A stretch of 64,000 bases of DNA from an uncultured Mycoplasma sp. (GCA_945947035.1 CAMEXD010000005.1:3122-67121); one strand, 5' to 3'. Positions 54,979 to 59,684 are shown, numbered from the stretch's first letter. A program made the numbers and translations. The notes: a model not told the origin generated them from the sequence alone.

Positions 54979-55602
54979 ATGATGGGTGAAGAAAACAATT
55001 CAAGAAAGGTGTTCTTATCAGTTTTAGGAGTTGCAATTTTACTTGTTGCTGTAGTAGGAATTTCATTTGCTGCTTATACTTTCTCAAGTACTTCAAATGA
55101 TGCTAATACAATCAGTACAGGTACAATTACTATGAGTTATACAGAACCAACAAATGGTATTCTATTAGAAAATGCATTACCAGTTGCTGATGATACTGCA
55201 AAAGTATGGGTTGAAGATGGAAAAGTATTTTCATTTACTGTAGCTGCTGGAGCAACAGGAACTGTATCAGTACCTTATCAAATTAGCGTTACAAAAGATG
55301 TTTCATCTACTTTAGCTGATTCTGCTGTTAAAGTTTACCTTACAAAAGGTGAACTTGGAACTGAAACTGCTGTATTTGAACCAAAATTAATGAGTACAGT
55401 AGTTGGAAAAAATGCTGGATTAAGATCAGGATCTGATGTTATTCACACTGAAACAGTTAATTTTGTTGATGGCAATGCTTCTAATGCTACAGTAAAATAT
55501 AACTTAAGAATTTGGGTTGATGCTGCTGCAACAGTTACTCAAGGTGAAAGTTATAAAATTTTAGTTAACGTTGATTCAGCTGTAAAACCAATTGGTAAAT
55601 AA
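54979..55602 (+). CDS. secreted TasA-like candidate fibre subunit with a SipW-cognate-type signal peptide (paralogue 1)
   Basis: The N-terminus KVFLSVLGVAILLVAVVGISFAAYTFSSTSNDANTISTGTITM resembles the TasA/camelysin signal (…GGGTWAAFND…ATFASGTLDL). Ser/Thr/Val-rich beta-type body. Strong RBS AAGGAGG. Confidence 0.55.
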   Translation: MMGEENNSRKVFLSVLGVAILLVAVVGISFAAYTFSSTSNDANTISTGTITMSYTEPTNGILLENALPVADDTAKVWVEDGKVFSFTVAAGATGTVSVPYQISVTKDVSSTLADSAVKVYLTKGELGTETAVFEPKLMSTVVGKNAGLRSGSDVIHTETVNFVDGNASNATVKYNLRIWVDAAATVTQGESYKILVNVDSAVKPIGK

Positions 55603-55657
55603 TTTTATTTTAAAAATTTAAACAAAACAAATAAAAAATATTAAGAGGAGGAATATT

Positions 55658-56332
55658 ATGGACAGTAATAAAAAAACACTAGTACTTTCAGTTATCGGAG
55701 TATTAGTTCTAGTTTTAGTAGTTGTTGGTGTTTCATATGCAATGTATACATTTACAGGTACTGGTACTAAAGAAAACGTAATCACTACTGGTAGCATTTC
55801 AGTTACTATTGATCCAAATCAAGGTTCAGAAATTGATGGAGTAACTGTTGATAAACAAACTATTACTTTAACAAATCAATATCCAATGACTGATGCTAAA
55901 GGAACAGAAAGTTCTGAATTATTAAGATTCTATGTTTCTGCAACTTTAAGTGGTTCAACAACTATTAATTATGAAGTTGGTATGGATAAACAAGCTTCAA
56001 CTTTAGAAGATAGCGAAGTAAAAGTTAATTTAAGTAAAAAAGTTGGAACAGGAACTGCATCTTATTTAAAAGGATCAGCAAATACTGGTGTACTTGTTAG
56101 TTCATTTGCTGCAAATGCTGGAACTTTAGCTAATACAACAGTTACTAGTTATTTATTAGATAAAGGAACATTTACTGCAAGTGGTATCGTTACTTATGAA
56201 ATGAAGATGTGGGTTGATGAAAACTATGATTTACCTACAACTGATACAAGTGCTGGTAATACACATTCTAATCAAACAACTTCAGAAAATTATTCATTTA
56301 AAATTAAAGCATACGCTACACAAGCTGCTTAG
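55658..56332 (+). CDS. secreted TasA-like candidate fibre subunit with a SipW-cognate-type signal peptide (paralogue 2)
   Basis: VVVGVSYAMYTFTGTGTKENVITTGSISV. The C-terminal MWVDENYDLPTTDTSAGNTHSNQTTSENYSFKIKA is almost identical to a segment of the 635-aa protein at 15680-17587. RBS GAGGAGG. Confidence 0.55.
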   Translation: MDSNKKTLVLSVIGVLVLVLVVVGVSYAMYTFTGTGTKENVITTGSISVTIDPNQGSEIDGVTVDKQTITLTNQYPMTDAKGTESSELLRFYVSATLSGSTTINYEVGMDKQASTLEDSEVKVNLSKKVGTGTASYLKGSANTGVLVSSFAANAGTLANTTVTSYLLDKGTFTASGIVTYEMKMWVDENYDLPTTDTSAGNTHSNQTTSENYSFKIKAYATQAA

Positions 56333-56342
56333 TAAAAAATTT

Positions 56343-56376
56343 AACATTACTATGAAAAATAGTAATGTTTTTTTTG
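56343..56376 (+). terminator. intrinsic terminator after paralogue 2
   Basis: AACATTACTA-N7-TAGTAATGTT followed by T7. Confidence 0.75.
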
Positions 56377-56440
56377 TTTACTACTTTTATTTTATTCAAA
56401 TATATGGTAATATATATTTATATGGTAAGGTAGGGATACT

Positions 56441-57091: not shown

Positions 57092-57113
57092 AATTTGAAA
57101 GGGATTGTTATTT

Positions 57114-57881
57114 ATGAATGCATTAAAAAAAATTGCTAGGGTGATATCTAACATAGTTTTTTATGTACTTCTTGCTATTATAGTTTTATTAATAGTTTAT
57201 GTTATGGTAGTAACTGTATATAAAAAACAAGATAAATTAGGTGATATACCAATAAACTTTTATACTATTTTAACAACTAGTATGGTTCCAAAAATTCAAG
57301 CAGGAGATATCGTAATAACTTATAAAGACAAAAACGATCTATATAATGAAGGAGATATTATTACTTTTATCTCAGAAGGTAACATGACTAAAGGAGTAAC
57401 TATTACCCATCGTATAACAAAAAAAGAAGTAATTAATGGAAATTATTATTATTATACTAAAGGTGATGCCAATAATACTGCTGATACAAGTCCAGTATCA
57501 AGTTCTAATGTAATTGGTAAAGTAGTTTTAAAAATACCTAAGGCTGGTTATATTCAACAATTTATGGTTAGCAAATTTGGTTGGTTAGTAGTAGTAGTTT
57601 TACCTTGTTTAGCAATTATCATTTATGATGTAGTCAAAATATTTGAAAAGACCTTTAAAATTAAAAAGGGAAAAGATTTATTAAGTCATGATAAAACTAA
57701 AGAAAAAAGAGATGATTTAAACAAAGCAATTAATTCGGAATATGTATCAAAAGATTTACAAGAAAAGATTGATACAGTATATGATGCTATGGGAATTAAT
57801 AATAATGAAGTTGAAGTATTAGATAATGTTGATAATAAAATAGAGGTTAAGGAGGAAGATAAAGATGTCGAAGTCTTATAA
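57114..57881 (+). CDS. sipW: SipW-type (archaeal/eukaryotic-like, S26B) signal peptidase I with an extended charged C-terminal tail
   Basis: LTTSMVPKIQAGDIV (catalytic Ser), TITHRI (His) and YTKGDANNTADTSPV...VIGKVV. A C-terminal TM helix is followed by an ~80-aa K/E/D-rich tail. Confidence 0.85.
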   Translation: MNALKKIARVISNIVFYVLLAIIVLLIVYVMVVTVYKKQDKLGDIPINFYTILTTSMVPKIQAGDIVITYKDKNDLYNEGDIITFISEGNMTKGVTITHRITKKEVINGNYYYYTKGDANNTADTSPVSSSNVIGKVVLKIPKAGYIQQFMVSKFGWLVVVVLPCLAIIIYDVVKIFEKTFKIKKGKDLLSHDKTKEKRDDLNKAINSEYVSKDLQEKIDTVYDAMGINNNEVEVLDNVDNKIEVKEEDKDVEVL

Positions 57882-58473
57882 AAAAAATGATACAGTTTTT
57901 AATTTAAATGATAGATTTGATGAAGAAGTACTAGATAGTGAATTAGAAGAAAGAGAAGATCCCCAAATTAGAGTTGTTCATAAAGTTAATATAGTAGTTT
58001 TAATCCTATTTTTCTTATCGTTAGGATTACTAATTTTTTCACTTTATTATGCCTTTTTTAAAGAAAAAACTTTTATTAATATAAAAACAGTTAAAGATGG
58101 AGATATTGCTGTTATTCACTCTAAAGTTGACTTTGGAGAAACTATTGAATCATTTTTAAATATTAACTCTGAAGATAAAGCAAGTTCTTATAAATTTACA
58201 GTACAAAATAATAATAAACATGAACTTAATTATAAAATAAAACTAATTGATGTTACAAATGTTGGAATAAATAGAATTAATCTTTCATCATTAAATTATT
58301 CTCTTTATAAAAATAACAATAAAATATCATCAGGTGTCGTATCAGATTTGAAAGAAAATATTATAATAACGGAAAAAACATTATCAAATACAAAAGATTC
58401 TTATGAATTAAAATTGTGGAGTAATAAAGTAACAAATGATGGTTTTAAATATAAAATAGAGGTGACTGATTAA
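57865..58473 (+). CDS. membrane-anchored paralogue 4 of the same family
   Basis: Acidic N-terminus, one TM helix, then NYKIKLIDVTNVG...LNYSLYKNNNKIS...SYELKLWSNKVTNDGFKYKIEV. The RBS AAGGAGGA lies inside the sipW 3' end. Confidence 0.45.
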   Translation: MSKSYKKNDTVFNLNDRFDEEVLDSELEEREDPQIRVVHKVNIVVLILFFLSLGLLIFSLYYAFFKEKTFINIKTVKDGDIAVIHSKVDFGETIESFLNINSEDKASSYKFTVQNNNKHELNYKIKLIDVTNVGINRINLSSLNYSLYKNNNKISSGVVSDLKENIIITEKTLSNTKDSYELKLWSNKVTNDGFKYKIEVTD

Positions 58474-59162
58474 TGCAAGAAATAAAAGGGGTAATAAAAG
58501 AATTTTTATCTTTATTTGCGGATAGTTTATGTGTAATTTGTATATTTTTATCTGGGTTTTTAATTCTAATTAATCTTTATCATTATCAAGAAATAAGATA
58601 TAAAATTAATAATGAATATATGACATCAGAAGAATACATAAACAATAAAACAAAAATTATGATTTTAAAACAAAAGATAAATAATTTATCTGAAAATAAA
58701 GTTTCTCAATCTGATTATTTTATCTATAGTCAAACTAAAATAAAATTAAATGATTGTTTAGAATCATTAGAAAATAGTAAATATTTTAACATGAATACAA
58801 ATAAAATAGGTTTAATCGATTTATATACTTTTAACAATGAAATAACTAATGTTCTTCAATATAAATGCTTATTTGAATTAGATTATACTATTACTAATGG
58901 AATTAAAGAATATAAATCAAATTTAAATTATGATTTATCTGAAGAAGTAGAAAGTGCTAAAAATGATATCGTATTTTATGGAGATTATTTAAGAAATCAA
59001 TTGCTATCAAACGGAAGTTATTATTATTCAACAGAAAATTCCAAAGTATCTATTTATAATGAAAGTTTAAGCTATTACAATTTAATTAATAATAACTATA
59101 ATAAATTGCTAACTGAAACAGAAAAAATGTCAAATTGGTTTTTAGAGGAATTTGGGAGGTAA
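58473..59162 (+). CDS. single-pass membrane protein, function unknown
   Basis: 229 aa with one N-terminal TM helix and an N/Y/K-rich ectodomain. The TAATG overlap with the upstream gene indicates translational coupling. Confidence 0.4.
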   Translation: MQEIKGVIKEFLSLFADSLCVICIFLSGFLILINLYHYQEIRYKINNEYMTSEEYINNKTKIMILKQKINNLSENKVSQSDYFIYSQTKIKLNDCLESLENSKYFNMNTNKIGLIDLYTFNNEITNVLQYKCLFELDYTITNGIKEYKSNLNYDLSEEVESAKNDIVFYGDYLRNQLLSNGSYYYSTENSKVSIYNESLSYYNLINNNYNKLLTETEKMSNWFLEEFGR

Positions 59163-59165
59163 TCT

Positions 59166-59684
59166 ATGAAAAAAATATTATCTAAATTTTTAAACGTTTT
59201 AAGCTTTATTTTAATGTTTGCCTCTTTTACCTTAATTTTACTAGGAATATTATTTACTTACAAAAGATTAGAGAAAAGTTTGTTAGATTCAATAAATATA
59301 TTTATACCATTTATATTAGTTATTATTTTAACTGTTGTAAATATGTTTAATAAAAAGGCAAAGATAAGCGAAAATTTGTTATTTAATTTTACAAGTTTTT
59401 TAGCATTTACAGTTATAATTATAATTGGATTAAGAGCAAAATTTGATACTAATATGCTTCTTTATCAAAAATATCAAATTAATTATAATCCAAATTATCT
59501 GGCAGATAATTTATCTACTATTAAAGTATTATTATATTCTTTGAGTGGAGCAAATGTATTTTTATTATTAAAATCATTGTTCAAAGATAAAGAGGTTTTA
59601 GAAAAAAAAGAAGCAAAAGAAACAGAAAGTACCACTTTTTTGCCAAATAAGGAACCAATTGGTAATAATACGGAAGAATTATAG
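59166..59684 (+). CDS. polytopic membrane protein, function unknown
   Basis: 172 aa with about 4 TM helices and a charged C-terminal tail. RBS GGGAGG. Confidence 0.4.
   Translation: MKKILSKFLNVLSFILMFASFTLILLGILFTYKRLEKSLLDSINIFIPFILVIILTVVNMFNKKAKISENLLFNFTSFLAFTVIIIIGLRAKFDTNMLLYQKYQINYNPNYLADNLSTIKVLLYSLSGANVFLLLKSLFKDKEVLEKKEAKETESTTFLPNKEPIGNNTEEL

Follow-up and report, generated by a model that had tools for sequence, protein, structure and literature searches.

A SipW-type signal peptidase encoded among paralogous beta-sandwich proteins in small-genome gut Bacilli: a candidate surface-fibre and adhesin-display system

Gene cluster and proposed function

A 64,000-nt stretch of DNA from an uncultured Mycoplasma sp. 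(GCA_945947035.1 CAMEXD010000005.1:3122-67121; hereafter the window) encodes, in seven consecutive genes on the + strand, four paralogous secreted or membrane-anchored proteins (P1 to P4), a SipW-type signal peptidase and two membrane proteins (M1 and M2). The list of open reading frames (orfs) places all seven genes where an earlier note on this DNA had read them. The explanation that we consider best, with confidence a little better than even, is that the cluster specifies a self-contained, sortase-independent surface-fibre and adhesin-display system that is SipW-dependent and of the donor-strand type. The narrower claim that the P proteins are SipW-processed surface proteins can be made with much higher confidence.

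According to the proposed mechanism, P1 and P2 would be the abundant subunits, served by a promoter region of their own and by perfect Shine-Dalgarno sites, with a terminator at 56343-56376 that would cut read-through into the following genes. Both proteins would be exported by Sec and cut by the SipW-type peptidase after G-x-S-x-A, and this cleavage would release a conserved N-terminal strand (A-Y-T-F...N-x-I-x-T-G-x-I-x-M-x-Y-x-E) that could then slot into the beta sandwich of the adjacent subunit, by donor-strand complementation, and so build a polymer. The uncleaved segment of P4, and in the subclade of the window that of P3 as well, would hold the base of the fibre in the membrane, and M1 and M2, always translationally coupled to sipW and P4, would be a membrane assembly or accessory platform. 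Dispersed long members of the family (P5 of the window, and relatives with Big_2, Flg_new, LRR_5 or lectin domains) would join the fibre via the same module and display their binding domains.

Signal peptidase

The central gene (57105-57881, + strand, 258 aa) encodes a peptidase of the SipW type, as the earlier note supposed: its product scores 105 bits against the model for archaeal- and endoplasmic reticulum-type signal peptidase I (TIGR02228, cut-off 51.85). The motifs SMVP, THRI and KGDxNN are conserved across 70 orthologues, and two membrane segments (residues 17-35 and 161-179) flank the catalytic domain. The likelier start codon is the ATG at 57114, 10 nt behind GAAAGGGA. Against the equivalog model of the Bacillus enzyme (NF046067) the protein reaches 102.6 bits, below the cut-off of 190; judged by its sequence, it is of the SipW type but not the Bacillus orthologue. 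The second membrane segment is followed by an acidic, poorly conserved cytoplasmic tail of about 80 aa (57640-57881, residues ~180-258); SipW of B. subtilis (190 aa) is not known to have such a tail.

The P family, its cleavage site and its fold

P1 (54970 or 54979 to 55602, + strand, 210 or 207 aa) is a secreted beta-sandwich protein and the candidate major fibre subunit; the 207-aa product has an identical (100%) counterpart on record (P0001), although an exact look-up of the P1 product of the window itself returned no entry. P2 (55658-56332, + strand, 224 aa), preceded by the strong ribosome-binding site AAGAGGAGGA, is a second secreted paralogue, with the cleavage region G-V-S-Y-A↓M-Y. The earlier suggestion that P1 to P4 are paralogues is borne out: P1 matches P2 with E 8e-13 and P3 with E 4e-14, while P4, the divergent member, is joined to the others by a hidden Markov model (HMM) of its orthologues, which matches P3 (2e-9) and P1 (3e-7) and, in the related loci described below, 307 orfs of the P family. 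The family is large: a word-indexed search returned 1,033 P-family matches, none of which bears a functional name or a Pfam domain, and an exhaustive profile search gave 5,735 clusters (50% identity) at E<=1e-3 and still 2,625 at E<=1e-10. P1 to P4, like M1 and M2, match no model of Pfam or NCBIfam. Recurrent weak matches occur among 63 relatives (NCBIfam SGM_5486_fam in 22, Pfam DUF7472 in 19 and DUF7077 in eight, with best E values from 7e-4 to 8e-3), and these may be pointers to further remote relatives of the P module.

The N-terminal motifs read previously (SFA↓AYTFS...N-T-I-S-T-G in P1, SYA↓MYTFT...N-V-I-T-T-G in P2) are present and are the most conserved part of the family. P1 consists of a signal peptide (residues 1-31, ending G-I-S-F-A↓A-Y), the conserved N-terminal strand (33-59) and a beta sandwich (~60-200). 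When residue conservation was computed over 542 non-identical family members in the numbering of P1, the cleavage motif G27-x-S29-x-A31 proved to be 92, 85 and 92% conserved and to be followed by (A/L)(F/Y); its sequence is that of a canonical signal peptidase I site (-3/-1). The best-conserved stretch comes after the cleavage site, with N43 at 96%, I45 at 83%, T47-G48 at 89 and 95%, Y54 at 88%, E56 at 89%, P68 at 97% and D71 at 92%; K75 is 71% conserved.

A monomer of P1 was modelled with AlphaFold2 (AF2) from a 63-sequence alignment (mean predicted local distance difference test score, pLDDT, 77). The model has a signal helix at residues 5-32 and a confident seven-strand sandwich at ~60-200, and it leaves the segment between them unplaced, with pLDDT <50 at residues 32-48 and 52-59. 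The most conserved part of the protein, a strand-like segment, has no place in the monomer, which is the pattern expected of a strand donated to a neighbour. In a Foldseek search of the PDB with this model, the top 50 matches were generic beta sandwiches (best E 3.7e-3), with a template modelling (TM) score of ~0.25 that was lowered by the signal helix and the disordered strand kept in the query; the weak matches include carbohydrate-binding modules, TNF-like proteins and the donor-strand pilins CsuA/B, CfaB and CanA. Foldseek against BFVD gave generic beta-sandwich matches and added nothing, and sequence and profile searches of PDB structures with P1 gave nothing below E 0.65.

The hydrophobic N-terminal segment is unusually conserved, as it would be in a fibre of the type IV pilin kind, in which the hydrophobic helix is retained as the fibre core. 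The sole profile matches of P1 in the PDB are, moreover, two filament proteins of archaea (6nav, 8tib); in the case of 6nav the alignment runs through the helix. These matches have E values of 0.65-1.1, however, which is chance level, and the signal peptides of TasA, the fibre protein discussed in the next section, are equally conserved. The helix is preceded by no K/R-G/A/S motif and followed by a canonical S-x-A site; neither a prepilin peptidase nor an assembly ATPase nor a platform protein was found in the cluster with Pfam and NCBIfam, and the enzyme that is associated with the P proteins belongs to the S26 signal peptidases, whose cut is made at the outer face of the membrane. With no prepilin-peptidase site before the helix and no ATPase or platform genes nearby, a pilin-type fibre was rejected as very improbable.

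Relation to TasA

The resemblance to TasA proposed in the earlier note holds for the N-terminus (signal peptide, cleavage site and first strand) and fails for the body of the protein. The TasA sequence used here, when checked against the PDB, is identical to 8AUR over residues 28-261; the TasA family members that were collected all carry PF12389, and an alignment of 43 of them was compared with the P family by hhalign. The match is confined to 61 N-terminal columns (E 5.3e-4, probability 30.6%), which take in the signal peptide, the cleavage point A-A, the strand (N-T-I-S-T-G-T-I in the P family, A-T-F-A-S-G-T-L in TasA) and the motif L-x-N-x-x-P. Cross-searches between TasA and the P family with HMMs are weak, reciprocal, in register and confined to the first 60-80 residues. 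When the TasA HMM was run on 2,213 orfs of the related loci, the top 40 matches all belonged to the P family, as did 171 of the 199 matches at E<=10.

That the family is not recognisably camelysin was likewise confirmed, PF12389 matching none of the proteins of the window and none of the 63 relatives; P1 to P4 match neither PF12389 nor NF046066, the NCBIfam model of TasA, even at E<=1. Matches below cut-off were found among the 63 relatives for NF046066 (two, E ~0.01), for the SipW-cognate signal model TIGR04088 (three, best E 1.6e-4) and for exp_by_SipW_III (one). The solved jelly roll of TasA (5OF1, 8AUR) is not among the top 50 Foldseek matches of the P1 model in the PDB. To judge from these alignments, the P proteins appear to have the N-terminal module of a SipW substrate in common with TasA, yet lie outside the TasA/camelysin family. 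The locus has the make-up that goes with the TasA superfamily in the wide sense (TasA, BsaA, AbpX, AbpA, CanA, threads and Tafi): a signal peptidase I of its own, encoded with several small secreted subunits that are paralogous and rich in beta structure.

Membrane anchors and accessory membrane proteins

Hydropathy indicates one membrane segment in each of P1 to P4 and M1, two in the peptidase and four in M2. P3 and P4 had been thought to keep an uncleaved anchor, a proposal that stands for P4 and, in the case of P3, applies only to the subclade of the window. P4 (57865-58473, + strand, 202 aa) has a cytoplasmic N-terminus of ~40 aa before its membrane segment, and none of its orthologues has an S-x-A site; it is the candidate membrane anchor or base subunit. 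P3 (56441-57091, + strand, 216 aa) has a cytoplasmic N-terminus of 27 aa and one membrane segment, and its cleavage site is degenerate (SFFPALVFS, as against (V/I)S-x-A-x-F in most orthologues). This loss is common only to the closest relatives of the window (loci L001-L003, L005 and L006), among which P3 is probably tethered to the membrane, as far as its sequence can tell. A sortase-built pilus was considered and rejected: there is no LPXTG motif, the C-termini being ...AVKPIGK, ...ATQAA, ...VNVDAY and ...KIEVTD, and Pfam and NCBIfam detect no sortase in the cluster.

M1 (58473-59162, + strand, 229 aa) is a single-pass membrane protein, of which a word-indexed search found eight close relatives only. 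An AF2 model built on eight sequences, with two of the five models confident, has one membrane helix and an outside five-helix bundle (pLDDT 78); Foldseek matches it in the PDB to generic bundles and to nothing meaningful. Among 55 orthologues C95 is nearly invariant and C132 invariant, and Pfam scans of these orthologues gave scattered single matches only. M2 (59166-59684, + strand, 172 aa) has four membrane segments and the conserved motifs RLEKS and LRAxFDTNM; a match to Rnf-Nqr at 22.8 bits falls below the cut-off of 23.8 and was set aside as due to membrane-segment composition. By the sequence comparisons made here, M1 and M2 are new families. The roles suggested for them derive solely from their invariable coupling with sipW and P4, and would be those of accessory proteins at the membrane.

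Conservation across gut Bacilli

A scan of one genome per species yielded 79 loci, of which maps were drawn by HMM. All are from uncultured gut Bacilli, and one lies on a closed chromosome of 1.52 Mb; they are labelled as Bacilli, "Tenericutes", "Mycoplasma sp. CAG:611", "Clostridium sp. CAG:451" or Candidatus Onthousia, and a few bins are evidently mislabelled. The family CAG-611 is placed by GTDB in the order RF39 (PMC8035907), and RF39, RFN20 and ML615J-28 are fast-evolving relatives of Mycoplasmatales (PMC10868615).

The gene order metG-tatD-[P x 2-7]-sipW-P4-M1-M2-rsmA-yabG was found in every locus long enough to show it, so that the co-occurrence of the seven genes, put forward in the earlier note as a check, extends to every related locus of sufficient length. 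The gene sipW is present in 69 loci, and P4, M1 and M2 in 65; the commonest numbers of short paralogues are four (24 loci) and three (22 loci). One locus, L061 (10001-14092), is the sole one without P4 between sipW and M1, sipW overlapping M1 directly, and it has a P-family gene of 549 aa after yabG. The earlier description of the cluster as an accessory insertion is misleading, given that it occupies exactly the same position in ~65 species-level genomes and has the G+C content of its background (0.248 for the cluster, 0.243 for the window). It takes the place of what Bacillus has between tatD and rsmA, and is an old, fixed feature of the lineage.

The flanking genes are those named in the earlier note, tatD (54135-54902; Pfam TatD_DNase, 7.7e-74) upstream and rsmA (59750-60535; RrnaAD, 2e-50) downstream. 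The neighbourhood also raises the alternative that what the P proteins build belongs to the spore, whether coat, exosporium or appendage; TasA itself was first described in such a setting (CotN), and the cluster has the sporulation neighbours spoVT, yabG, spoVG and yabP. The neighbours yabG, veg, spoVG and yabP were confirmed, and one TasA entry in the PDB is still titled "spore coat-associated protein N". On the other hand, the order metG-tatD...rsmA-yabG-veg-spoVG is the usual housekeeping order of Bacillota, as on the B. subtilis map, and therefore says nothing about the timing of expression. No sporulation-type promoter or regulator was identified, and the adhesin fusions described in the next section fit a role at the surface of vegetative cells. 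A spore structure is accordingly regarded as improbable.

Two genes downstream of the cluster is veg (61376-61594, + strand; Pfam "Biofilm formation stimulator VEG"). Veg acts in B. subtilis as a stimulator of tapA-sipW-tasA transcription. The proximity of veg to the cluster is probably a coincidence that reflects the usual gene order of Bacillota.

Long relatives and domain fusions

A fifth member of the family, P5 (15680-17587, - strand, 635 aa), had escaped the earlier reader; it matches the P1 HMM with E 1e-92. Its N-terminal 210 aa resemble P2 and are fused to a C-terminal part of ~420 aa that has no match in Pfam and no sequence match in the PDB, and P5 is a candidate tip or decorating subunit. 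By eye only, the ending of P5 (...FLRGGYY...SVRLVI) recalls FGE-sulfatase or C-lectin-like domains.

Of nine long relatives scanned (748-1,743 aa), eight have Big_2, Flg_new, BspA-type LRR_5, Laminin_G_3 or Cadherin-like domains after the module, and one fusion gene stands alone among housekeeping genes, away from sipW. Since the long relatives lie away from sipW, the peptidase would act on them in trans. At least seven satellite loci away from sipW (L027, L051, L055, L062, L065, L076 and L081) were noticed in a single metagenome-assembled genome, Lapin-012 bin84; each has a long P-family gene (390-634 aa), in most cases adjoining a short one (190-225 aa), as if the stock of adhesin-adaptor pairs had been enlarged in this genome. 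The module would thereby behave as a portable N-terminal unit that ties binding domains to whatever the short subunits build.

The same long proteins bear on an alternative in which the P proteins are surface or secreted proteins that do not polymerise: the module would be a membrane-proximal stalk or a cell-envelope-binding domain, SipW would merely mature or release the proteins, and M1 and M2 would be envelope proteins that have nothing to do with them. Many relatives are in fact long single proteins, alone in the genome, with adhesin domains after the module, and the beta-sandwich fold is a generic one that occurs also in carbohydrate-binding modules. Several observations speak for polymerisation instead. 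In every genome two to seven short paralogues, devoid of any extra domain, adjoin the peptidase; the most conserved segment of the family is the N-terminal strand, which the monomer model does not place and which aligns in register with the donor strand of TasA; and sipW, P4, M1 and M2 are tightly coupled. Non-polymerising proteins are a credible but unlikely explanation.

The preferred reading, a donor-strand fibre that displays adhesins, must be set against the points that weigh against it. Polymerisation of the P proteins is something that we infer and not a demonstration, which also favours the alternative just described. The hhalign probability of the N-terminal alignment with TasA is just 31%, and general signal-peptide character may account for part of the score; the body has no significant match to TasA in sequence (PF12389) or in fold (Foldseek top 50), and TIGR04088 does not match P1 to P4. 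The orthologues of P3, encoded by the gene before sipW, retain the S-x-A site in most genomes, and because of this an anchor role for P3 is not general. Finally, M1 and M2 resemble nothing known.

Expression signals

The strong terminator that the earlier note placed after P2, and the overlaps and internal ribosome-binding sites by which it joined the last five genes, were all found. The terminator (56343-56376, + strand), which may also be an attenuator, consists of an 11-bp stem and a U-run and parts P1 and P2 from the assembly genes; its folding energy is -16.4 kcal/mol (z = -5.7), and none of 200 shuffled sequences was equally stable. A consensus terminator scan of the region returned nothing, because the scan demands at least three G-C pairs and the genome has a G+C content of 24%.

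P3 and sipW are separated by 13 nt, sipW and P4 share 17 nt, AAGGAGGA lying within sipW, P4 and M1 overlap by 1 nt (TAATG), and M1 and M2 are separated by 3 nt with GGGAGG ahead of M2. The coupling extends to the related loci, 64-65 of which have median gaps of -4 nt for sipW-P4, -1 nt for P4-M1 and +1 nt for M1-M2.

A candidate promoter of the P1-P2 unit was read by eye at 54923-54951 on the + strand (TTGCTT, 17 nt, TATTAT), followed by the strong ribosome-binding site AAAGGAGGA; it scores under the threshold of a consensus scan and constitutes weak evidence. The near-perfect Shine-Dalgarno sites of P1 and P2 suggest high expression of both. P1, P2 and P5 are rich in alanine, glycine, valine and threonine, and their genes have a G+C content of 31-33%, compared with 24% for the window. 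Between M2 and rsmA, an extended -10-like element (TGGTATAAT, 59702-59710) was read by eye and no hairpin was seen after M2; rsmA may have its own promoter in addition to read-through from the cluster.

Other features of the window

P5 lies between the gene for RNase R (17678-19777) and a ParB-like gene. The ParA and ParB genes at 12079-13735 are confirmed by Pfam, and a further gene of the ParB-like kind, longer than the first (13843-15078, 411 aa), may encode a Noc-type paralogue. Gene orientation flips from - to + at about 27250-28180, and the orfs at 28184-39767 are sized like dnaA, dnaN, gyrB and gyrA; the window probably spans the replication origin.

Comparison with known systems

The tapA-sipW-tasA operon of B. 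subtilis resembles the cluster in that a dedicated SipW-type peptidase is encoded amid its substrates. The substrates of both have a conserved signal peptide, a small-x-A site, a strand (A-T-F-A-S-G-T-L in TasA, here N-T-I-S-T-G-T-I) and then L-x-N-x-x-P, with a beta-sandwich body and a separate accessory or anchor protein. In contrast to TasA, the body of the P proteins is not detectably homologous, TapA is lacking, the paralogues number four to nine in place of one, and two extra conserved membrane proteins (M1 and M2) are encoded. The peptidase, moreover, is not the SipW equivalog and has a long acidic tail, and the module is often fused to adhesin domains.

The sipW-bsaA-bsaB-bsaC operon of Clostridium perfringens combines SipW with more than one TasA-like paralogue (PMC11580942, PMC7395162). 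Its products are membrane-anchored donor-strand polymers with an isopeptide lock between N35 and K74 that is catalysed by E56, and genes of the TasA/BsaA family often occur as multiple paralogues beside a signal peptidase (PMC11580942). As in BsaA, the donor strand of the P proteins would come right after the cleavage site and contain an asparagine, and an acidic residue and a lysine are conserved in the body. The conserved N43, E56 and K75 (96, 89 and 71%) invite the idea of a BsaA-like lock; they are spaced by 13 and 19 residues as against 21 and 18 for N35, E56 and K74 of BsaA, and the equivalence of the two sets is not established. The bsa operon differs further in that the present cluster has neither a vWA protein nor an adjacent sortase, and published descriptions of the bsa operon include no M1 or M2.

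The haloarchaeal taf cluster of Haloarcula consists of seven genes, which specify one major and two minor subunits, an S26 peptidase of their own and membrane proteins of unknown role (PMC11821415). Multi-paralogue operons with a dedicated signal peptidase build donor-strand fibres both in C. perfringens (PMC11580942) and in Haloarcula (PMC11821415), and the same operon pattern is found across the TasA superfamily (bioRxiv 10.64898/2026.01.04.697558). [quoted passage not shown] They differ in that Tafi is archaeal and exported by Tat, and in that TafD has four membrane helices and an immunoglobulin-like domain; DUF5305 and DUF1102 of the Tafi/AbpX loci were not found here, and the present cluster includes no transcription factor.

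The cluster fits closely with the SipW/TasA, SipW/BsaA and TafD/Tafi kind, and differs by a subunit body that is recognisable as none of these families, by M1 and M2, by its high paralogue number and by the adhesin fusions. A bolder proposal, offered tentatively and as a possibility short of probable, is that the P module (~200 aa) is the building block of a hitherto undescribed, lineage-wide display machine in small-genome gut Bacilli of the RF39/RFN20 type, in which the module, once cut by SipW, would polymerise by donor-strand exchange, perhaps with an N43-K75 isopeptide lock like that of BsaA. Any protein with the module, adhesins with Big_2, LRR or lectin domains included, would then be able to plug into a fibre anchored in the membrane, and M1 and M2 would form a new type of platform.

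Significance

The principle of such systems is known, and the P family, which is very large, unnamed and unstudied, can now be given a specific hypothesis about its function, together with a definite set of genes. If the preferred reading of a donor-strand fibre is true, the TasA-type principle of a dedicated signal peptidase with donor-strand subunits extends to new subunit bodies and to two new accessory membrane proteins. Subject to experimental confirmation, the P module could also be a modular display scaffold. RFN20 and ML615J-28 have been reported to be without sortases (PMC10868615), and, on the bolder proposal above, display by the P module would stand in for sortase-based display in sortase-less lineages. 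For these small-genome gut species, the cluster is probably the main means of building surface fibres and presenting adhesins, and it bears on how they attach in the gut.

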